Program-made: the position numbers and the translations under genes | Part shown: positions 1,975 to 8,934 of the stretch, one piece after another | Numbering within the stretch: position 1 is the stretch's first letter | How the letters are laid out: the number at the start of each line of letters is the position of its first letter | Source: a virus | Taxonomy: Duplodnaviria; Heunggongvirae; Uroviricota; Caudoviricetes | IMG/VR virus record: IMGVR_UViG_2537561823_000013 | DNA length: 9,289 bases | Reading direction: 5' to 3' (one strand) | Notes under the pieces: generated by a model | What the model saw: only the letters and a program-made list of their open reading frames with translations | Told to the model about the DNA's origin: nothing | Databases searched by the model: none

Positions 1975-2463
1975 TGGTGTGAGGTGTAACGCAATGAACA
2001 TAACAAAAAGCGCCCCGTTGCCGGAGCGCCCTTGTGAACAATTAACCTGCTGCGAAAAAAATGGATCAGTGCAGGGGAATTATATCAACTGTGTGAAGAA
2101 GCGCCACTATTGCCGGATAACAGGCAAAGAAAAGGCCACCAGTCACGGTAGCCCTGCGACACAAATTTCGCGTTATCCCCAACGCATGAGCATCGCCAAC
2201 AATGCCACATTTGCGGCTGGTGGGCAATGCAATCAGTCTGGTTCAGTTCGTTGCCATACCTGCAATGAGCGCTTTTCCCTGTACTCTTTAAGGAATTGCT
2301 CAAGGGCAAAAGCACATGGCGCGAATCTTTCTGATTCATGCTCTATCTTTCTGCGTCGTCTTTTCCGTGTCGGTGATAATGTTTTGGTCAATTCTTTATC
2401 GGTCATTGTGTTGTCCTGCATAGCAATGCGCCGTAATACCTTACACCACGGCGCTGGTGATGG

Positions 2464-2769
2464 TCACTCCTGCTCTTTGGCCTTGCGACGCTGGAGTTCT
2501 TCACGCGCGACGGTGATGAGTTGCCCGATCTCCTCGGCTGCTTTGACTCCGATTTTTTCCACCTGCGCCAGTGCATCGAGCGAAGAAACCAGGGGATTTT
2601 CTCCGCTTCCTTCTGCCTGGCGGCGGGCGATCTCACCGCGAACGGCTGTAATCACGAAAGCGGCTATTGTTTCCCCTTCCGTTTTCGAATTTTCCATTTC
2701 CTCGATTACATCATGGGGGAAGCGGATATTTTTCATTTGCGATCTGCTGTTGATATTTCCTGTTGCCAT
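2464..2769 (-). CDS. ribbon-helix-helix (Arc/CopG-like) DNA-binding protein, candidate repressor, divergent from the early operon
   Basis: 101 aa on the minus strand. KNIRFPHDVIEEMEN...ETIAAFVITAVRGEIARR looks like a beta-strand followed by two helices, as in RHH proteins. Non-repetitive, charged composition. SD is weak; an alternative start is the internal Met (MKNIRF...). It lies inside the obviously spurious + strand ORF 1979-3172. Confidence 0.55.
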   Translation of the reverse strand: MATGNINSRSQMKNIRFPHDVIEEMENSKTEGETIAAFVITAVRGEIARRQAEGSGENPLVSSLDALAQVEKIGVKAAEEIGQLITVAREELQRRKAKEQE

Positions 2770-2831
2770 CAGAATGTCCGGTTATTTTGAGGTGTGCATA
2801 CATTACATCAAAAGGTGTGTAAATAAAACAC

Positions 2832-2859
2832 TTGACACTGTAGCGCACTTAAATTTAAT
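2832..2859 (+). promoter_or_regulatory. sigma70-type promoter for the early/replication operon
   Basis: -35 TTGACA (2832-2837), 16-nt spacer, -10 TTTAAT (2854-2859). It is about 100 nt upstream of the first gene of a tightly packed + strand operon. Confidence 0.5.
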
Positions 2860-2860
2860 C

Positions 2861-2893
2861 TGTACACACACCAATGATTGTGGTGTATGTACA
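2861..2893 (+). promoter_or_regulatory. 13-bp inverted repeat (one mismatch) with 7-nt spacer overlapping the predicted transcription start; candidate operator
   Basis: tgtacacacacca (2861-2873) versus tggtgtatgtaca (2881-2893). Reverse complement of the right arm is tgtacatacacca, so there is a single C/T mismatch. It lies immediately 3' of the -10 element. Confidence 0.4.
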
Positions 2894-2965
2894 GCAAAGC
2901 CCCGCAGTGCTGGAACACATGCAGGGCTTCTAACCACCAACGATAGCGAAAGTATCGAGGTAGCT

Positions 2966-3172
2966 ATGAGAAATTATACCAGACACCCGCAAGGGCGGGA
3001 CTCGTACAACCTGAATAAATACATCTGGCGTTTTATCGCCCTGAGCACGGCACAACCGCGCGTGATTACCATTGAGGCCACCAGCGAACAGGAAGCGCGT
3101 CAGCAATCTCCTGATGGCTGCGTGATGGTATTCGCTGCCCGTATTCGCCAGGGGGAAACCTATGCACAATAA
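2966..3172 (+). CDS. small protein, possibly Icd-like (P4 icd-type cell-division interference family); function unverified
   Basis: 68 aa, MRNYTRHPQ...YIWRFIALSTAQPRVITIEATSEQEARQQ...VFAARIRQ. It is only the 3' end of the long spurious ORF 1979-3172. First gene after the promoter. The Icd-like assignment rests on recalled motif similarity (A.SE.EAR and ..FAGR-like), not on a search. Confidence 0.5.
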   Translation: MRNYTRHPQGRDSYNLNKYIWRFIALSTAQPRVITIEATSEQEARQQSPDGCVMVFAARIRQGETYAQ

Positions 3173-3398
3173 AACCACACCGGACGCAGCCGCCGAAGCC
3201 ATCAAAACGCTGATGCACGCGCTGATTGATATTTCTGTTATCGCAGACAAGGCGCATAAGCGCGCCACCAGCGAAACAGAATATGCCGGGGCTTTCGTTC
3301 CTCACTCACTGGCTGTTATGCAACTTAGTGCTGATATGGCGCTGAATGAAGCAGGCAAAATTCTTACCGCAGATATTCAAGGGGCGCACCATGCATGA
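3162..3398 (+). CDS. hypothetical protein (78 aa)
   Basis: ATG 3162 overlaps the upstream stop (3170-3172). SD GGGGGA at 3151-3156. Non-repetitive, helix-rich composition. Confidence 0.6.
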   Translation: MHNKTTPDAAAEAIKTLMHALIDISVIADKAHKRATSETEYAGAFVPHSLAVMQLSADMALNEAGKILTADIQGAHHA

Positions 3399-3618
3399 TG
3401 ACCGTTATTTTAAATCAATGAGCCATGCAGAAAACGCACTGACTAACAGTGAATGTTTGAGGCAAATATTTCTTATCTGGCTTGATGGTTTAAGTGATGC
3501 GCCGGAAGATGAGCGTGAGTCTAATCTTGCTGGTGCGTTTATTTCATTACTCGATACGGTAATCGTCGAATTAAATAAAGCGATCGAAATTCACGATAAA
3601 AAAATAAACGCGGAATAA
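3391..3618 (+). CDS. hypothetical protein (75 aa from ATG 3391; alternative upstream ATG at 3346)
   Basis: ATG 3391 is preceded by aagggg (3378-3383) and overlaps the upstream stop (ATGCATGA). The ORF track's 3346 start has no SD. Confidence 0.55.
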   Translation: MHDDRYFKSMSHAENALTNSECLRQIFLIWLDGLSDAPEDERESNLAGAFISLLDTVIVELNKAIEIHDKKINAE

Positions 3619-3623
3619 AAACC

Positions 3624-3911
3624 ATGAAACAGAAAATTTCTGGCTTTACTGCCAGCGGCCCCGCTCGGCCTGAAATCCGCCCCGGCGATATTTTCCGGGA
3701 TAACTATGGCGGCACGGTAACGATAAAAGGCGTGGCAGAACGGCGCATCACTTACCGCCGTGATGGCTACGAATATGACTGCGTGATGCCTGTTTATCAG
3801 TTCCGGCGTGATTTCACGCTGGTGGGCCATCGTAAAGCCGTAAATCAGAAACGTGCAGCAAGTCATATCCGCAAAATTCGTGAAATGCTGGTCGCAGGGG
3901 GTAAAAAATGA
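3624..3911 (+). CDS. hypothetical protein (95 aa)
   Basis: Open frame in operon context. Its stop overlaps the helicase start (ATGA at 3908-3911). Confidence 0.6.
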   Translation: MKQKISGFTASGPARPEIRPGDIFRDNYGGTVTIKGVAERRITYRRDGYEYDCVMPVYQFRRDFTLVGHRKAVNQKRAASHIRKIREMLVAGGKK

Positions 3912-5314
3912 AACTGGCACCGAACGTAAAACTGTTACCGAAAGATAAACACACTGAGGCGGTTATTTTTGCGGGTGATAATGCTCACTCCTTTGCAGAA
4001 CATTACATGATTGCACAGGCCAAAAAAGCAGGCGATCCCATCCCTCCGGTTTACCTGGGCCGTTATCAGTTAAGCGAACTGGACAACCTGCAGATTGTTG
4101 ATGAGGGGCGATACAGGGTAACGGTGATACGCGCCGGAAATATTGACGAAGCGCAGCTGTTAACCATAGCGACAAAACTGGCGATCGCCGGAGTCCAGGA
4201 AGCGCGGCTGCTTTCTGAAAACTTCGAATTACTGGAGAAATGGACCGACCAGCTTCCACGGCTACGGGAGACATGGGAGAGAGGGGAAAGCCTGATCATG
4301 AATGGAGGAAAACAAAAAATCACGCTACCGATTTCATGGGGTTCTGAGGGATTCGACGCGCAGCAAAGCTACGTAATTAAGGGGCTTATTCCGGCTGAAT
4401 CATTATGCAGCACCTACGGGGCCAGCGGTTCTTATAAATCGTTCCTGGCTATTTCCTGGTCGTGCCATGTTGCCACAGGTATGGCATGGGGAGGCCGCAG
4501 GGTAAGTAAGGGCGCGGTTATCTATATCGCTGGCGAAGGCAGTATGGGCGTAAAACGCCGCGTTAAGGCGTGGGAGATAACCCACGACAAGGTGGTTACG
4601 GATTTGTGCATCGTTAACGCGCCTGTCTTCCCTGCATCGCCTGACTATGTGGAGCAGGTTATCAGGACCGCCGGATTAGTGCAGGACAGAACGGGCGAAA
4701 GGGTGCGGATGATTGTCATTGACACGCTGGCCCGTTGCTTTGGTGGTCATGATGAAAATGACTCCCGCGACATGGGGGCGTTTATCCAGGGGTGTGACGC
4801 GATAAAGCAGGCCACGGGGGCCACGGTTCTGGTTGTGCATCATTCCGGCAAGGATGAGACGAAAGGGGCGCGGGGTTCCAGTGCATTCCGTGCGGCGCTT
4901 GATGCTGAGTTCCGAATCAGTCGGGAACATTCAGAGGCTACGGCGCTGGTTGCAGCATGTACGAAGATGAAGGACGCGGAGGAGCCAAAAGAAAGCGCCT
5001 ACGACCTTAAGAGCGTGGAGGTATTTACGGATCCTGAGGGTGAAGAAATCGTGTCCATGGTGGTGATTGACGTTCCCCGCGCCCCTGCTGAACTGGAGCG
5101 CATAGAGGAGGCCGGGAACAAGACGGAAAATCACACGGCTTTATGGGGTTGTATCCGGTCACGTATACAGCATGGTGATAAATGCACGATCCCGCTGCTA
5201 CGTGATGACATGAAAAAGCTGGGATATGACACAAAACACCTTAAACGATGGTTAGCCAAACTGGAAAAAGACGGCGTGATTTGCGTCGATGGGGATGATG
5301 TTCACCCACTGTAA
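3908..5314 (+). CDS. RepA-type (RecA-fold, AAA_25-like) replicative helicase / replication initiator with C-terminal putative DNA-binding domain
   Basis: 468 aa. P-loop-like TYGASGSYKSF, Walker B RMIVIDTLARCF, and VLVVHHSGKDETKGARGSSAF typical of the RepA/DnaB-like plasmid and satellite helicase family. SD aggggg sits about 9 nt upstream. No zinc-finger or Toprim primase signature was seen in the N-terminal 150 aa. Confidence 0.85.
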   Translation: MKLAPNVKLLPKDKHTEAVIFAGDNAHSFAEHYMIAQAKKAGDPIPPVYLGRYQLSELDNLQIVDEGRYRVTVIRAGNIDEAQLLTIATKLAIAGVQEARLLSENFELLEKWTDQLPRLRETWERGESLIMNGGKQKITLPISWGSEGFDAQQSYVIKGLIPAESLCSTYGASGSYKSFLAISWSCHVATGMAWGGRRVSKGAVIYIAGEGSMGVKRRVKAWEITHDKVVTDLCIVNAPVFPASPDYVEQVIRTAGLVQDRTGERVRMIVIDTLARCFGGHDENDSRDMGAFIQGCDAIKQATGATVLVVHHSGKDETKGARGSSAFRAALDAEFRISREHSEATALVAACTKMKDAEEPKESAYDLKSVEVFTDPEGEEIVSMVVIDVPRAPAELERIEEAGNKTENHTALWGCIRSRIQHGDKCTIPLLRDDMKKLGYDTKHLKRWLAKLEKDGVICVDGDDVHPL

Positions 5315-5514
5315 AAAGTGGGCGTTAAAAGTGGGAATAGTGGGTAATTTAACTGGAATTTAACAAAATCGCCCACTTTCCCACGTGTATACATCCCAAA
5401 AAGTGGGCACTAAAAAAATTCTTATGAAACAGTACGATATAAAACCACAAAATCCCAGGTGGGACGAAGTGGGAAACCATGAAAAGTGGGTAGAAAAAGT
5501 GGGCACAGGTGGGC
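5303..5514. repeat. iteron array with AT-rich spacer; candidate replication origin
   Basis: Core (A)AGTGGG(N) occurs as direct copies starting at 5316, 5329, 5338, 5401, 5457, 5467, 5484, 5497 and 5507. Inverted copies (CCCAC) are at 5303-5310, 5371-5378 and 5379-5384. An AT-rich stretch at 5409-5456 separates the two clusters. The array begins inside the last codons of the helicase gene. Confidence 0.65.
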
Positions 5515-5516
5515 GC

Positions 5517-5768
5517 ATGACCAGAAAAACCAGAGATAAGACAGCACCAAAATATCGCGCATTAGACATGACAGAGCACGCCTTAAAGGTGGCAATCAGA
5601 ACGATAGACCGCCACGCGGGGGAAGGATACGCGAAAGCACATCCCGAACTGATAAGCGCATTCATGACCACGACGGCGGCAAATTTTGCCACGCTGACAG
5701 AGCGGGAGATTGCGGAAGCTGAACAGGTGACAACCATCAACGTTAAAACCGGAGAGCAGACAGCATGA
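5517..5768 (+). CDS. hypothetical protein (83 aa), start trimmed to exclude the iteron-encoded N-terminus
   Basis: The ORF track starts at 5385, but codons 5385-5516 are the iterons themselves (repeated KVG/EVG/KWV). ATG 5517 follows aggtgg. The stop overlaps the ssb start (ATGA at 5765-5768). Coding status is uncertain. Confidence 0.4.
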   Translation: MTRKTRDKTAPKYRALDMTEHALKVAIRTIDRHAGEGYAKAHPELISAFMTTTAANFATLTEREIAEAEQVTTINVKTGEQTA

Positions 5769-6187
5769 CAGCACAGATAGCAGCTTACGGTCGGCTGGTG
5801 GCTGACCCGCAGTTAAAGACCACCAGCAAAGGGACACAAATGGCGATGGCGGGTATGGCGGTTCCCCTGCCGTGCAGCCAGGCAGATGACGGAACGGCGA
5901 CGATGTGGTTATCTGTCCTGGCGTTTGGCAGACAGGCCGACGCACTGGCAAAACACCACAAAGGCGAACTCCTGAGCGTGGCGGGTAACATGCAGGTGAG
6001 CCAGTGGACAGGCCAGAACGGCAAAACGCGGCAGGGCTGGCAGGTTATCGCAGATAGTGTAATCAGTGCCAGAACGGCGCGACCGGGCGGCAAAAAAGGT
6101 CAACAGGGCCAGGCCACTGACGCATTGAACAGGGCAAAACAACAGTCAGGGAATGATGAACCGTACGGCGATAATATACCGTTTTAA
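5765..6187 (+). CDS. ssb: single-stranded DNA-binding protein (SSB family, OB fold) with C-terminal ...DNIPF tip
   Basis: 140 aa. WLSVLAFGRQADALAKHHKGELLSVAGNMQVSQWTGQNGKTRQGWQVIADSV aligns by eye with E. coli SSB [52 protein letters not shown]. The C-terminus DEPYGDNIPF resembles the canonical DDDIPF tip. SD ggagag lies 9 nt upstream. Confidence 0.8.
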   Translation: MTAQIAAYGRLVADPQLKTTSKGTQMAMAGMAVPLPCSQADDGTATMWLSVLAFGRQADALAKHHKGELLSVAGNMQVSQWTGQNGKTRQGWQVIADSVISARTARPGGKKGQQGQATDALNRAKQQSGNDEPYGDNIPF

Positions 6188-6397: not shown

Positions 6398-7444
6398 ATG
6401 AGTATGGTTGATTTATATTCGCCTACACAGCTTGTGCAGGTGGCTAATGCTGAAGATGTGCAAAAAAAACTAAATGCGTTGTTTACCAGTTTGTTTTTCA
6501 CTCGCTCGGTAATGTTTGAATCGAGAGACATTATTCTTGATACGATCGACGATCCAAATATCCCGATCGCGGCGTTTTGCTCTCCTATGGTGGGCAGTAA
6601 AGTTTCACGAGATGAGGGATACGAATCAAAAACAATTCGCCCAGGCTATATGAAACCGAAAAGCAGTATTGATCCAAATAAGTTAGCTGTGCGCCCTGCT
6701 GGTGTATCACCTGAACAATACAATGCTTTTGGAGCGCGTAATATTAAAGTTAAACAGGCGATTGTAAATCAGGCTAAAGCTATACGTGCACGTATTGAAT
6801 GGATTGCTGTTCAGGCAATCACAACGGGGAAAAATATCATTGAGGGCGATGGGATTGAACGTTATGAACTGGACTGGAATATAAAACCACAAAATATTAT
6901 CACGCAGTCTGGCGGTGCTGAGTGGTCAGGTAAGGATAAAGAAACTTTTGATCCAAATGATGATATTGAGAGCTACGCAGAATTTAGTGAGGGCGTCACT
7001 AATATCATCATTATGGGCGGTAATGTATGGAAGAAATACCGTTCATTCAGAGCGATAAAAGAGGCTCTGGATACCCGTCGTGGTTCTAATTCCGAACTGG
7101 AAACGGCCCTTAAAGACCTTGGTGATTCGGTGAGTTTTAAAGGGTATATGGGCGATGTTGCGATTGTTGTTTACAGCGGACGTTATACCGACGAGGACGG
7201 AACTGAAAAACATTTCCTTGATCCTGATTTGATGGTGCTTGGCAATACGGCTCTTCAGGGGATTGTCGCCTATGGCGGTATTCAGGATCCGGAGCTAATC
7301 CGAATGGGGCTGACTAAAGCCGAACTTGCACCGAAAAACTATATTGTGCCTGGTGATCCGGCTATTGAGTACGTACAAACGCACTCTGCACCACAGCCAA
7401 TACCGGCCCGCATCAATCGTTTTGTTACCGTTCGCATTGGCTAA
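6398..7444 (+). CDS. major capsid protein, phage lambda gpE family (HK97 fold)
   Basis: Long collinear similarity to lambda gpE as recalled, for example NIITQSGGAEWSGKDKETFDPNDDIESYA...FRAIKEALDTRRGSNSELETALKDLG...GYMGDVAIVVYSG...MVLGNTALQGIVAYGGIQD versus lambda NITQSGGTEWSKRDKSTYDPTDDIEAYA...FKAVKEKLDTRRGSNSELETAVKDLG...GMYGDVAIVVYSG...MVLGNTQARGLRTYGCIQD. Start is MSMVD (6398), mirroring the lambda E MSM N-terminus; the SD aagagg (6392-6397) would favour ATG 6404. The ORF-track start 6317 was rejected. Confidence 0.9.
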   Translation: MSMVDLYSPTQLVQVANAEDVQKKLNALFTSLFFTRSVMFESRDIILDTIDDPNIPIAAFCSPMVGSKVSRDEGYESKTIRPGYMKPKSSIDPNKLAVRPAGVSPEQYNAFGARNIKVKQAIVNQAKAIRARIEWIAVQAITTGKNIIEGDGIERYELDWNIKPQNIITQSGGAEWSGKDKETFDPNDDIESYAEFSEGVTNIIIMGGNVWKKYRSFRAIKEALDTRRGSNSELETALKDLGDSVSFKGYMGDVAIVVYSGRYTDEDGTEKHFLDPDLMVLGNTALQGIVAYGGIQDPELIRMGLTKAELAPKNYIVPGDPAIEYVQTHSAPQPIPARINRFVTVRIG

Positions 7445-7453
7445 GGGGGAGCA

Positions 7454-7795
7454 ATGGCTACTCATTACACTGAACTCATGTCTGGTACTGAAGCACTGGT
7501 TACTACGCTGGGGATATTTTCAGCCAATAAAGGGGTAATACCTGCGTTTACGCCACTGATGCAGGAAGATGCAACTGGTGCGCTAGTGGTATGGGATGGA
7601 ACGAGCGCAGGCAAAGCGGTTTATGTTTCCGCTGTACAAATCGACACAGCGAAAAAAACACAGGCACAGGTTTATAAGACAGGTGTTTTAAATGTTGATG
7701 CTCTGAACTGGCCTGAGTCTGTAAGAGAACTGTCGGCAAAGGTTGCCGCGTTTGTTGGCTCAGGTATTTCTGTTCAGCCGCTGGCTCGTGTGTAA
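7454..7795 (+). CDS. head decoration protein, phage lambda gpD family
   Basis: 113 aa. TPLMQEDATGALVVWDGTSAGKAVYVSAV...YKTGVLNVDALNWPES...AAFVGSGISV matches recalled lambda gpD [29 protein letters not shown]...YKSGTFRYEDVLWPEA...TAFAGTAISIV. SD aaggggga lies 5 nt upstream. Confidence 0.85.
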   Translation: MATHYTELMSGTEALVTTLGIFSANKGVIPAFTPLMQEDATGALVVWDGTSAGKAVYVSAVQIDTAKKTQAQVYKTGVLNVDALNWPESVRELSAKVAAFVGSGISVQPLARV

Positions 7796-7806
7796 AGGGG
7801 GATACA

Positions 7807-8190
7807 ATGCAGAATCATTACAATGACCTTAAGCCAATTGCCGAAATGATGTATCCGGATCCAGCAGTAGAGGAATTAAAGGCTATTGCTGACAAAATGC
7901 GTTTAAGTGAACGCCTTGTTGATATGAATCAGGTGATGGAACTTACTACCCTTAGCCGTCGCACATTGCTAAACCTTGAGGCTCGTGGAGAGTTCCCCGA
8001 ACGCGTACAGGTTACGGAAGGGCGTAAGGCCTGGTATTTAAGTGAAGTGATCGACTGGATAAACAATATTCCTCGAGCTTCTGAATATTGCCGCGTACCT
8101 GTCCCCAAAAAGCCAGATGCGGCGCTATGCCTCAAGATTGAGCGTGTACGTCGCAATGCACGGGATGGTCGCTATAAGTTGATTGGTTGA
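7807..8190 (+). CDS. AlpA/Xis-like HTH domain protein with N-terminal extension (second AlpA-like gene in the element)
   Basis: 127 aa. MELTTLSRRTLLNLEARGEFPERVQVTEGRKAWYLSEVIDWI fits the AlpA-family HTH pattern, preceded by about 40 aa of unrelated sequence. SD agggggat lies 5 nt upstream. It sits between the decoration gene and cos. Confidence 0.7.
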   Translation: MQNHYNDLKPIAEMMYPDPAVEELKAIADKMRLSERLVDMNQVMELTTLSRRTLLNLEARGEFPERVQVTEGRKAWYLSEVIDWINNIPRASEYCRVPVPKKPDAALCLKIERVRRNARDGRYKLIG

Positions 8191-8391: not shown

Positions 8392-8934
8392 ATGAAATCG
8401 CACCTGATGAACAAAAAAACTATGGCGCAAAGCTGCCGCGTAAGTGCGACAGCGTTCGACAAGTGGGGAGTGACTCCCGTTGAGCGTAAAGGCCGTGAGG
8501 CGTTTTATGATGTTGCTAGCGTGATAGACAATAGGGTTAACAATGCAATTAACCAACTTACAAACGACAAAGGCGAGATTGATGATGATGAACTTTTACG
8601 CGTAAGAATCAGATTAATGACGGCCCAGGCGGAAGCGCAGGAACTTAAAAACGAGCGCGAACGCGGCGAGGTGATTGATACAAAGTTTTGCATCTACGCG
8701 ATTTCAAAGCTGGCACAACAAATTTCTTCAATCATGGACAGCCTCCCGCTCACAATGCAAAGGCGCTTTCCCGATATAAGGCCGTATATGCTGGATGAAC
8801 TAAAAAGGGAAATAGTCAAAGCATGTAACGCATGTGCAAGACTTGACGAAAACCTGCCACAGATACTGGCTGATTACCTGATGGAAACTACCGGAAACGT
8901 GCCTGAGAAGTTGCTACAGAACAAAGGCGAGTAA
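8392..8934 (+). CDS. terminase small subunit, phage lambda Nu1 family
   Basis: RLMTAQAEAQELKNERERGEVIDTKFCIYAISKLAQQISSIMDSLPLTMQRRFPDI...LKREIVKACNACARLDENLPQILADYL matches recalled lambda Nu1 RLTRAQADAQELKNARDSAEVVETAFCTFVLSRIAGEIASILDGLPLSVQRRFPEL...LKRDIIKAMNKAAALDELIPGLLSEYI. The N-terminus aligns with the Nu1 winged-HTH. The ORF-track start is a GTG at 8380; ATG 8392 has a GGGGA SD 5 nt upstream; ATG 8407 is an alternative. Confidence 0.85.
   Translation: MKSHLMNKKTMAQSCRVSATAFDKWGVTPVERKGREAFYDVASVIDNRVNNAINQLTNDKGEIDDDELLRVRIRLMTAQAEAQELKNERERGEVIDTKFCIYAISKLAQQISSIMDSLPLTMQRRFPDIRPYMLDELKREIVKACNACARLDENLPQILADYLMETTGNVPEKLLQNKGE

Follow-up and report, generated by a model that had tools for sequence, protein, structure and literature searches.

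The stretch of DNA analysed here (the window, 9,289 nt in full) is a whole satellite located at tRNA-Pro, carrying int, alpA, a RepA-type helicase, an SSB, homologues of the capsid E and D proteins and a Nu1-type TerS. PICIs of the EcCICFT073 type move virulence and defence genes. The features by which Gram-negative PICIs are recognised are all present (int, alpA, pri/rep, homologues of capsid E and of a decoration protein, and terS, within ~9–10 kb and with a fixed attachment site), and the gene content of this small E. coli phage satellite agrees with that described for EcCICFT073 in PMC6092414; the window is accordingly a Gram-negative PICI of the EcCICFT073 type. The same founding paper gives the activator AlpA as the only induction route demonstrated for these islands, and states that it is unclear whether Gram-negative PICIs have a repressor. 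AlpA, a homologue of P4 Vis, is encoded here at 1768–1974 on the plus strand (Pfam PF05930, 36 bits), directly 5' of a long open frame on the same strand that is described below.

Minus-strand genes opposite the long frame

On the minus strand, positions 2464–2769 encode a protein of 101 aa that belongs to the NCBIfam family YlcI/YnfO (NF041551; score 64.2 bits, cut-off 30, over aa 9–50), which is also the name given to the product by RefSeq. Codon-position variability in the minus frame follows the order third > first > second. Judged by family membership and substitution pattern, 2464–2769 is a real, conserved gene, in agreement with the initial annotation, which had taken it for a coding ORF with an RHH product. 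That annotation had also described it as the only divergent gene, a view that has to be abandoned because RefSeq annotates a further minus-strand CDS at 2233–2406. This small ORF (57 aa), located downstream of the RHH gene, matches phrog_21027 (E 1e-15), shows wobble-enriched variability in the minus frame and is probably co-transcribed with its larger neighbour. An intrinsic terminator-like hairpin at 2006–2033 on the minus strand (12 pairs, seven of them G-C, tail TGTTATGTTC after TTTT) would end the minus-strand RHH operon just before the alpA 3' end. One more minus-strand frame, orf53 (2066–2227), lacks coding periodicity and family matches and is not claimed as a gene.

The 101-aa protein is a candidate repressor with an Arc/Mnt-like N-terminal domain (aa ~9–53) followed by a C-terminal helical extension (aa 55–100). 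Specifically, it contains a strand motif of the Arc/Mnt type, NIRFPHDV, aligned to NLRWPREV of Arc (hhalign E 0.002), in which R16 and P18 are invariant and positions 12–15 and 17 are variable. No RHH family was found above threshold for this product in Pfam, a Foldseek comparison of the full-length model with the PDB returned no match, and sequence searches of the PDB yielded nothing beyond a weak, HhH-like resemblance between Hef and the C-terminal half of the protein. No promoter of the RHH gene itself was identified in the window's variant. Overall sequence similarity of the protein to Arc is marginal.

A predicted early promoter and candidate operator repeats

A predicted early promoter, P(+), is found at 2832–2859 on the plus strand, composed of the -35 hexamer TTGACA (2832–2837), a 16-nt spacer and the -10 hexamer TTTAAT (2854–2859), or alternatively of the same -35 with TAATCT at 2856–2861 and an 18-nt spacer, the start being predicted at ~2864–2869. 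These elements are present just as the initial annotation had read them, with the correction that the -10 has no A at the key position 2; this is why a consensus scan missed P(+). The -35, in the form TTGAC(A/G), keeps its position in relatives from six genera, each type having its own repeat placed between the hexamers or behind them, and most types have one repeat between -35 and -10 and another after -10. This conserved TTGAC(A/G), together with a -10-like hexamer, makes P(+) a predicted promoter internal to the eta-like long frame.

The promoter of the window is bracketed by four copies of an 11-bp motif, GGTGTRYRTAC, three of them exact and within 100 bp, with no exact copy elsewhere in the window and 0.71 expected window-wide. 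The putative operator O1 (GGTGTGCATAC, 2791–2801, plus strand) matches the motif exactly, and O2 (GGTGTGTAAAT, 2814–2824, plus strand) is a degenerate copy 8 nt 5' of the -35; a direct repeat, D1, runs over the same positions (2790–2807 and 2813–2830, spacing 23). The other two copies, O3 (2862–2872, inverted) and O4 (2882–2892), make up the inverted repeat IR1 (2860–2894) over the predicted start site. Such a repeat with a 7-nt spacer had been noticed before, and it is indeed there, with arms of 14 nt (2860–2873 and 2881–2894) complementary at 13 of 14 positions. IR1 is unique in the window at ≥13/14 matches and a loop of 3–10 nt, and nothing comparable appeared in 100 first-order-Markov randomisations (0 of 100). 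Its single mismatch is C-A on the plus strand and G-U on the minus strand. The two closest relatives show R/Y changes in the arms that are not strictly compensatory, a pattern more in keeping with protein half-sites than with an RNA stem.

Operator and protein types were compared in 104 related loci. In them, the correspondence between 24 operator types and 23 types of the protein encoded next to them is almost 1:1, a co-variation also expected from tight linkage, the two being <100 bp apart. Operator types do not track AlpA types in the same loci, and one operator type occurs with up to 6 AlpA types. In one pair of loci, L002 and L003, the differences between the proteins are confined to aa 4–23 (the N-terminal arm and strand), and the operators differ too. 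The reading of IR1 as operator-like, already part of the initial annotation, is supported by its belonging to a set of repeats around the promoter that changes with the adjacent protein over 23–24 types. RHH proteins sit as dimers of dimers on arrays of short repeats, direct or inverted, and the candidate operators, which co-vary with the protein, would suit such an arrangement.

A predicted antisense RNA and the frame that crosses it

Downstream of IR1 a second inverted repeat, IR2, spans 2896–2930 (arms AAGCCCCGCA at 2897–2906 and TGCAGGGCTT at 2920–2929), with a mismatch that is again C-A on the plus strand and G-U on the minus strand. By itself IR2 is insignificant, as we estimate ~3–4 such repeats per window by chance, and it is validated by covariation in relatives. 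From the comparative evidence below, IR2 belongs to the minus strand, where it forms the intrinsic terminator of a predicted and conserved cis-antisense sRNA of ~75–80 nt (2886–2965, minus strand) that begins with a 5' stem-loop containing an anti-SD (2932–2965) and ends with the IR2 hairpin followed by UUUGCUGU. The imperfect stem that the initial annotation had placed at 2896–2928 therefore exists, but as the terminator of this minus-strand RNA and not as an element of a plus-strand leader.

RNAalifold and pair counts gave, for the antisense strand, 97% of cells paired and 10 pairs with compensatory changes, equalled by 0 of 500 shuffles; the inner stem, for example, changes from CGATA/TATCG to CGTTA/TAACG in four relatives (L224, L225, L228 and L237). 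The minus-strand RNA has an MFE of -34.9 kcal/mol (z -4.57), compared with a z of only -0.84 for the plus strand, and the strand asymmetry is also seen in relatives, with 34 G-U cells versus 3 A-C cells; the 10 nt that follow the stem contain 5.2 T, versus 1.0 on the other strand. This U-tract is strong in most relatives, but the window has only 3 T in the 10 nt after IR2, and termination here may therefore be partial. A covariance model of the RNA (R1) scored 52–85 bits in loci left out of model building and 37.6 bits in the Pasteurella satellite Pmp7, where TATAAT lies 7 nt 5' of the match, and it found no match in P4 or in unrelated controls.

The predicted promoter of the antisense RNA is an extended -10, TGGTATAAT, at 2973–2981 on the minus strand, within codons 3–5 of the Icd-like gene, with the start at ~2965. 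Its hexamer is fixed in position and reads TAnnnT in all 96 unique relatives (TATAAT, TATGAT, TATATT, TATTAT, TAATAT or TACTAT), although the amino acids specified there differ; no recognisable -35 accompanies it. In the window the hexamer is TATAAT (2973–2978), over the Icd-like residues N3, Y4 and T5, and a silent T-to-C change at 2975 (TAT to TAC, both Tyr) would convert it into TATGAT, which among the natural variants is the most frequent. The attributes of a cis-antisense sRNA, namely a predicted promoter of its own, a stable fold on the minus strand and a G+C-rich terminator hairpin with a U-tract, are thus found at the sequence level. No Rfam family was detected in scans covering the entire window and 2760–3000, only sub-threshold similarity to symR, isrJ and two miRNA/lncRNA models, and the antisense RNA is absent from Rfam and not previously described. 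An RNA similar to P1 c4 or P4 CI had been expected 5' of the Icd-like gene and was rejected for the window, no C4 or isrK match appearing with E values up to 10 in 241 nt. Some relatives (L005, L053) carry an extra ash/P4-like insert. The known sRNAs of EHEC islands provided no link to the antisense RNA either, Esr41 being located in SpLE1 and the paper on Pas sRNAs being silent on PICIs. As for the searches for relatives, a 16-mer scan of genome contigs yielded only 7 real matches out of 96, the others being mostly chance matches in unrelated phyla, and a longer gapped pattern succeeded on viral contigs.

The target of the RNA would be the start of an Icd-like (kil-like) cistron, whose SD GAGG (2957–2960) and ATG (2966–2968) lie on the plus strand in a stretch, GAGGTAGCTATG, conserved at ≥90% in a sample anchored outside GAGGTAGCTATG. 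The predicted RNA, which would start at ~2965, one base short of the ATG, is complementary to the SD and to every base from there up to 2965. This ORF (2966–3172, plus strand, 68 aa; NF033153, 70 bits) is the first cistron of the early/replication operon and the analogue of P4 kil, and its stop overlaps the next ORF (3162). The same Icd-like domain forms the C-terminus of P4 Eta, of a long ORF in Pmp7 and of the long frame of the window.

This long eta-like frame (1994–3172, plus strand, 392 aa from the ATG at 1994, with an SD GAGG at 1981–1984) is in phase with the Icd-like ORF, lies antisense to the RHH gene and crosses the promoter, the operators and the antisense-RNA region. The leader of the initial annotation is accordingly not an untranslated spacer but part of a frame that is kept open. 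Frame 0 is free of stops in 17 of 23 module types, while the other two frames total 207 and 181 stops; the intergenic lengths range from 133 to 205 nt and every one equals 1 mod 3, and in one locus (L232) an open frame of 650 codons extends over two tandem modules. By these comparisons, selection keeps the 1994–3172 frame open, as with P4 eta. No domain match was found for aa 1–305 of the frame, and the substitutions in 1994–2233 show no excess at the third positions of frame 0 (121 / 58 / 49). Databases contain many ORFs of 247–273 aa with the same first ~85 residues.

Comparison with known immunity regions and rival readings

The gene order at the locus, alpA/vis followed by a nested eta/kil with an internal promoter, suggests that 2464–2965 is probably an on/off control (immunity) switch homologous to the immunity region of P4 (PLL-vis-eta/kil, internal PLE, CI RNA and seqA/seqC). 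In both, alpA/vis is followed by a long ORF with an Icd-like C-terminus and a nested in-frame short ORF, a promoter inside the long ORF, which in the window is the predicted P(+), the analogue of PLE, drives small ORFs and then the primase/helicase, and the start of the nested gene is subject to control at the RNA level, through an RNA that in the window is a prediction. Unlike P4, the window has a candidate repressor gene antisense in the long frame and putative operator repeats, it has no detectable RNA of the CI, C4 or isrK type, and model R1 is without a match in P4; the RNA of P4 is a processed sense-strand RNA acting on seqA/seqC, whereas that of the window would be a cis-encoded antisense transcript. 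In P4, termination is averted when the long frame is translated from the upstream promoter (PMC10111431, PMC4825925).

Other immunity designs share parts of this plan. A divergent, Arc/Mnt-like RHH repressor with operators overlapping the promoter that it controls, as predicted in the window, is also found in P22 immI, which has the RHH repressors Mnt and Arc, the promoters Pant and Pmnt and the sar antisense RNA. Like sar, the predicted RNA is an antisense RNA of ~70 nt started inside the operon and covering the ribosome-binding site of the downstream gene. However, the operon of P22 encodes an antirepressor and that of the window is for satellite replication and headed by an Icd-like gene, and no sar-family match was found in the local Rfam scan of the window. 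In P1 immI the order is c4 RNA, icd and ant, and translation of Icd is the control point for downstream expression; the window likewise has an Icd-type small protein as first cistron, but c4 is a sense-encoded, processed RNA, and the window has no C4 match and no ant gene next. SymR of the SymE-SymR system (RF01809) resembles the antisense RNA in architecture, being a cis-antisense RNA of ~77 nt with two stem-loops, a promoter in the first codons of its target and the SD covered. Its cmscan match spans exactly 2965–2893 but scores 25.4 bits where the gathering score is 61; the RNA of the window is therefore not a family member, and its genetic context and target protein differ as well.

Sequence and comparison show the RHH gene and the repeats, together with the promoter-like elements, the structure and strand of the RNA and the open frame; that the protein binds DNA and represses, that the RNA is expressed and that the entire induction step runs by AlpA read-through is inferred. 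The Arc/Mnt-like RHH protein would bind the 11-bp GGTGTRYRTAC repeats, two of them 5' of the -35 and two inverted (IR1) over the start, closing the early promoter and probably also controlling its own expression. The antisense RNA, made from the extended -10 in codons 3–5 of the Icd-like gene and ending at IR2, would pair with the SD region directly 5' of the Icd-like AUG, so that leaky early transcripts would stay untranslated and, by analogy with P4 and P1, be ended by Rho before the replication genes. Helper-induced AlpA would then drive transcription from upstream, giving a transcript translated as one long frame across the whole module, and this read-through would oppose transcription of the RHH gene, bypass the blocked internal start and shield the RNA from Rho. 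On balance we favour this switch as a whole, that is, an immunity region on the P4 plan with an RHH repressor, an antisense RNA and induction by AlpA read-through. The RHH repressor with its operators and the antisense RNA may be the missing repressor of EcCICFT073-type PICIs.

A more far-reaching version can be offered only tentatively, as a possibility that we consider somewhat doubtful. Gram-negative PICIs would be governed by a two-strand switch in which the repressor gene, the operators, the early promoter and the antisense RNA all lie inside an eta-like frame, in part antisense to it, and this frame would be kept open purely for translation. AlpA-driven transcription and translation opposite the repressor gene would themselves be the induction, silencing the repressor by collision and antisense pairing, bypassing the RNA-blocked start and preventing Rho termination, and the repressor/operator pair and the 7-nt RNA loop, both hypervariable, would define immunity types that let several PICIs coexist per cell.

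The initial annotation had proposed an arrangement that we regard as unlikely, with a master repressor like Stl acting alone on a constitutive promoter, IR1 as a single operator, IR2 as a plus-strand structure of the attenuator type and induction by a helper anti-repressor. The divergent RHH gene and the operator-like repeats do exist, the role of repressor is vacant in view of its unclear existence in Gram-negative PICIs (PMC6092414), and a divergent, hypervariable repressor candidate bordering the satellite replication operon is shared with SaPI Stl and with Rpr of Gram-positive PICIs. However, those proteins are of the Cro/CI-type HTH class and co-oriented with int, whereas that of the window is RHH-like, with its gene on the minus strand and int on the plus strand, and EcCICFT073-type PICIs are known to need the AlpA activator, which is the only demonstrated trigger, in place of an anti-repressor (PMC6092414); the likeness to Stl that had been put forward is thus a functional one, not extending to fold, orientation or induction route. 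The G-U/A-C asymmetry and the confinement of the U-tract to one strand place IR2 on the minus strand, the plus-strand leader folds poorly by its z value, and the conserved -10 points the opposite way. Moreover, the homologues of the RHH candidate in the phage collection include no helper-phage partner. A close YlcI homologue in lambdoid helpers, considered as the helper cue, was unsupported, tblastn against 50,697 phage records giving just two matches, both in small genomes (10.7 kb for Pmp7, which is PICI-like, and 16.5 kb for the other).

That the RHH protein instead serves a small minus-strand module, formed with the 57-aa ORF, as its antitoxin or autoregulator, with repeats that act only on its own promoter and overlap the early promoter incidentally, seems very unlikely to us. 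It is common for RHH antitoxins to use repeated sites for repression of their own operon, the protein gave weak matches to HicB and Rv0623-like families and a second small ORF comes next on the same strand, but this ORF matched no toxin family, in many variants the RHH gene encodes 59 aa and lacks an annotated downstream partner, and in most types the repeats lie within the plus-strand promoter, between its two hexamers, and behind it. It is even conceivable, at a probability close to negligible, that the 392-aa eta-like frame is a real protein-coding gene, the minus-strand ORF its shadow, and the promoter, inverted repeats and antisense RNA coincidental. Such a gene would account for a plus frame open and in phase across types and for the many database ORFs with a common start; against it stand the missing domain match for aa 1–305, the lack of third-position enrichment in 1994–2233, the variability of the RHH region, which tracks minus-strand codon positions, and the family model and confident predicted fold that the minus-strand ORF has of its own. 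RNA covariation and operator repeats are, in addition, independent of coding. The P4-type switch with its RHH repressor and antisense RNA remains our preferred reading.

A conserved and highly diversified RHH-operator pair, together with the antisense RNA, would supply the missing 'off' side of the PICI switch and, if true, explain the coexistence of several related islands, linking PICI control to the immunity designs of P4, P22 and P1. Engineered PICI 'drones', which depend on replication being tightly controlled, would benefit as well, and the switch provides concrete experimental handles in the 101-aa protein, the 11-bp site and the 75-nt RNA. No description of the module came up in literature searches on YlcI/YnfO, on Icd-like genes of satellites, on RHH proteins of PICIs and on antisense RNAs of PICIs. 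It occurs, for example, in Nissle 1917 and in clone D i14 / CFT073-like strains, and its leader/antisense block is present in 1567 of 5426 complete E. coli genomes (~29%).

Satellite identity and the early promoter

The window (IMG/VR contig L128) is a complete small phage satellite, and its 9,289 bp are 100% identical to a segment adjoining tRNA-Pro and yejM in several E. coli chromosomes. The plus strand encodes an integrase (1–1242), AlpA (1768–1974), an Icd-like ORF (2966–3172), three small ORFs (3162–3911), the last of which is a DUF4222 protein (3624–3911), a RepA-type helicase (3908–5314), SSB (5765–6187), homologues of the lambda E and D capsid proteins (6404–7795), a second AlpA-like gene (7807–8190), and a Nu1-type TerS (8392–8934). 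Two ORFs are found on the minus strand, a small conserved one of 57 aa (phrog_21027, 2233–2406) and one of the YlcI/YnfO family (2464–2769). This gene set matches Gram-negative PICIs of the EcCICFT073 type, in which AlpA is an activator induced by the helper phage (PMC6092414). The second AlpA-family gene, located 3' of the E/D homologues and just 5' of TerS, may be a separate regulator of the late region.

The initial annotation had proposed that a ribbon-helix-helix (RHH) protein represses a strong early promoter through an inverted repeat over its start site, with a second stem that could act in the leader, and every element that it named is found in the sequence. The −35 of the early promoter is a perfect TTGACA (2832–2837), and the proposed −10 (TTTAAT, 2854–2859, 16-nt spacer) was missed by a consensus scan because it has no A at position 2; TAATCT could serve instead, at a spacer of 18 nt. 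With either −10 the predicted plus-strand start (ca. 2864–2869) falls within the left arm of the inverted repeat IR1 (2860–2873/2881–2894), the 14-nt arms of which are complementary at 13 of 14 positions and separated by a 7-nt spacer. IR1 is the sole such repeat in the window, and none appeared in 100 randomised sequences. The second stem, IR2 (2896–2930), is by itself not beyond chance and is validated by the comparison among relatives.

The divergent RHH-like gene and its candidate operators

Judged from its sequence, the minus-strand ORF at 2464–2769 is a real gene for an RHH-like protein. It scores 64 bits against NCBIfam YlcI_YnfO_N (cut-off 30), its phrog_6522 match runs end to end, and 137 database relatives come from Escherichia, Salmonella, Citrobacter, Yersinia, Klebsiella, Serratia, and other genera. 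Variable alignment columns in the minus frame number 23, 9, and 3 at codon positions 3, 1, and 2, respectively, as expected of coding sequence. An RHH fold is likely, though not proven, given the YlcI_YnfO_N match, the parallel between the N-domain (S-Q-M-K-N-I-R-F-P-H-D-V-I-E-E-M) and Arc (F-N-L-R-W-P-R-E-V-L), the hhalign result for this domain against Arc (E 0.002), and the AlphaFold model of aa 1–54 (pLDDT 85, helices at 19–28 and 35–53). The C-terminal half (aa 55–100) forms one long helix, for which Hef gave a weak match of the helix-hairpin-helix-like type (E 0.013). Two protein lengths occur, 101 and 59 aa, many relatives being 59-aa proteins without the C-terminal half; the region concerned, 2464–2628, corresponds to aa 48–101. 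A strong minus-strand terminator at 2006–2033, just before alpA, together with the conserved 57-aa ORF, suggests a small operon on this strand that starts with the RHH gene and ends there.

The motif GGTGTRYRTAC has exact copies at 2791–2801, 2862–2872 (inverted), and 2882–2892 and a degenerate one at 2814–2824, and is absent elsewhere in the window (0.71 copies expected overall); therefore two copies lie 5' of the −35 and two make up IR1 over the start site. A gapped pattern placed in the conserved leader yielded about 120 related loci; four diverged variants from E. coli, obtained with BLAST, and seven loci from Xenorhabdus, Serratia, Edwardsiella, Photorhabdus, and Providencia were included as well. 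The stretch from the −35 to IR2 is hypervariable, and each variant has its own repeat set there, for example GTGTTCAACAC (three times), TGTAAGACAC, GTGGGCCACACC, or GTGACCACCTATT/AATAGGTGGTCAC. Typically, one copy abuts the −10-like TATACT of the divergent gene, another is set between the two hexamers of the plus-strand promoter, and one is placed just past the −10 of that promoter. The divergent proteins are all RHH-like, within two subfamilies, and in 104 loci 24 operator types correspond almost one-to-one to 23 protein types; a single operator type occurs with up to six AlpA types. In one pair of loci (L002 and L003) the proteins are identical from residue 24 on, only the N-terminal arm and strand differing, and the operators differ as well.

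An RNA stem would be another reading of IR1, yet its arms in the two closest relatives of the window carry R/Y substitutions that are not strictly compensatory, a better fit to protein half-sites. The repressor–operator idea is upheld. The pairing of repeat types with RHH types is strong circumstantial evidence, although not proof, that IR1 is part of an operator array co-varying with the RHH protein, since linkage alone would also yield co-variation.

A predicted antisense RNA over the Icd-like start

The initial interpretation stands in its repressor–operator part, but not in the leader stem, which is no plus-strand element: covariation, G-U asymmetry, and a minus-strand T-run reassign IR2 as the terminator of a predicted minus-strand antisense RNA. 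The DNA from IR2 to ca. 35 nt inside the Icd-like ORF is conserved at the nucleotide level across genera, with the flanking genes diverging. Aligned as minus-strand RNA, 28 distinct versions gave two stem-loops with RNAalifold, with 97% of cells paired and 10 pairs showing compensatory changes; none of 500 shuffles reached the observed pairing values, and slid controls dropped to 33–58% paired. The terminal hairpin has 34 G-U cells versus only 3 A-C, hence the minus-strand form gives the better helix, and the 10 nt past the stem contain on average 5.2 T on this strand versus 1.0 on the plus strand. The 80-nt minus-strand RNA of the window folds at −34.9 kcal/mol (z −4.57), compared to z −0.84 for the plus-strand leader.

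A −10-like hexamer is present on the minus strand in all 96 unique sequences, at a distance of exactly 4 nt from the start-codon complement, and the putative antisense promoter of the window is TGGTATAAT, an extended −10 (2981–2973, minus strand). A sample anchored outside the block added TAATAT and TACTAT, the hexamer remaining TAnnnT while the encoded residues vary (N-Y-T, N-H-T, D-I-T, N-S-I), and in this sample the inner stem switches from CGATA/TATCG to CGTTA/TAACG. A sub-threshold SymR match (2965–2893) begins at the predicted RNA start, ca. 2965. The covariance model built from the alignment scored 52–85 bits in relatives kept out of its building; neither P4 nor unrelated loci gave a match. 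It did match Pmp7, a Pasteurella satellite, at 37.6 bits (E 3e-9), again with TATAAT 7 nt upstream, a U-run past the hairpin, an adjoining RHH gene, and GGTG...CACC repeats. No Rfam family reached threshold for this RNA, and no ncRNA is annotated at its position in 1,567 E. coli genomes with the block.

The predicted RNA is fully complementary to the SD GAGG (2957–2960) and all bases to 2965, one short of the Icd-like AUG. The 7-nt loop (2946–2952) is the most variable part of the otherwise conserved 5' hairpin, with majority-base frequencies of 40–80% versus at least 90% in the stems (outside-anchored sample) and ca. 19 or more variants among unique sequences. It is reminiscent of the loops that confer specificity on plasmid antisense RNAs and may determine the specificity of antisense–target recognition. 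In this window the minus-strand T-run 3' of IR2 is weak, so some antisense transcripts may continue into the RHH gene, for which no promoter of its own was found in this variant. On the minus strand, the antisense −10 is immediately preceded by a hairpin in codons 7–12 of the Icd-like ORF (CCCGC-AAGG-GCGGG, 2986–2999), and the Xenorhabdus and Photorhabdus relatives have a hairpin of other sequence (CCTTTC...GAAAGG) at the same place.

The long frame, the P4 plan, and a proposed switch

Read backwards from the Icd-like ATG, the in-phase plus frame stays open to 1979/1994, beginning 5–20 nt past the alpA stop, with an SD at 1981–1984. Extending to 3172, this frame passes antisense through the RHH gene and across the promoter and operators. 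Over the 780 nt before the ATG it lacks stops in 60 of 104 loci; the other two plus frames average ca. 15 stops. Among one representative per operator type (n = 23), stops total 33 in frame 0 versus 207 and 181 in the other frames, and 17 have no frame-0 stop from the end of the RHH gene to the ATG. The two start codons are 133–205 nt apart, always 1 mod 3 except in three frame-shifted types. In one locus, L232, the frame (3565–5517) reaches 650 codons and covers two tandem RHH-plus-RNA modules. The first 305 residues match no domain family, and third positions of frame 0 are not preferred sites of substitution there; openness, not protein sequence, seems to be conserved.

P4 eta (199 aa) begins at the vis stop and has the same Icd-like domain as its C-terminus (73 bits). 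The interior of P4 eta contains a constitutive promoter, and Kil is a shortened form of Eta. Translation of the complete Eta occurs only from the late promoter upstream and is coupled to the alpA homologue; this translation averts termination (PMC10111431). Given the shared domain and this eta/kil design, we read the window as built on the P4 plan but with another immunity effector, RHH repressor, operators, and cis-antisense RNA replacing CI/seqA, a system that Rfam scans did not find in the window. The P4 immunity region is the closest in plan and P22 immI, with its Mnt/Arc RHH repressor and sar antisense RNA, the closest in parts; the first gene is of the P1 icd type, the repressor is not a member of the Stl family, and the antisense RNA belongs neither to SymR nor to C4/CI. 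No description of this repressor or RNA was found in the searchable literature, and both would be of real value for PICI biology.

In the off state, the RHH protein would bind the four operators and block the early promoter, while a constitutive antisense RNA would stop Icd-like translation on leaky transcripts. Because the genes of the operon are closely packed, their stops and starts overlapping at 3162–3172, 3391–3398, and 3908–3911, the operon RNA would become accessible to Rho when untranslated, as happens in P4 and P1. By analogy with P4 and from published AlpA data, the helper phage would induce alpA, and read-through from upstream would be translated as the long frame, its transcription opposing that of the RHH gene and being antisense to the RHH mRNA. 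Long-frame ribosomes would cross the blocked start site and shield the transcript from Rho; the repressor would then drop, the early promoter fire, and the antisense RNA be out-titrated.

Two tandem RHH-plus-antisense-RNA modules are found in L232 (4485–4569 and 5230–5313) and L227 (2327–2410 and 3071–3154), the RHH type differing between copies. In L005 (1723–2463) and L053, ca. 300 nt separate the conserved SD-ATG from the Icd-like domain; this insert is labelled as an "ash family" pseudogene and resembles the P4 cI region, and elements of this type may combine both immunity systems. Annotation pipelines are evidently inconsistent over the long-frame region: in L002 (1180–1659), L003 (1102–1659), and L004 (1264–1543), its 5' portion is given in RefSeq as a pseudogene for an "Icd-like protein", in each case overlapping the RHH gene on the other strand. 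Pmp7 (L246), deposited as a Pasteurella phage, is a PICI-like satellite of 10.7 kb with the same module (2083–2757); its annotation calls the long eta-like ORF a "transcriptional repressor" and has no entry for the RHH gene opposite.
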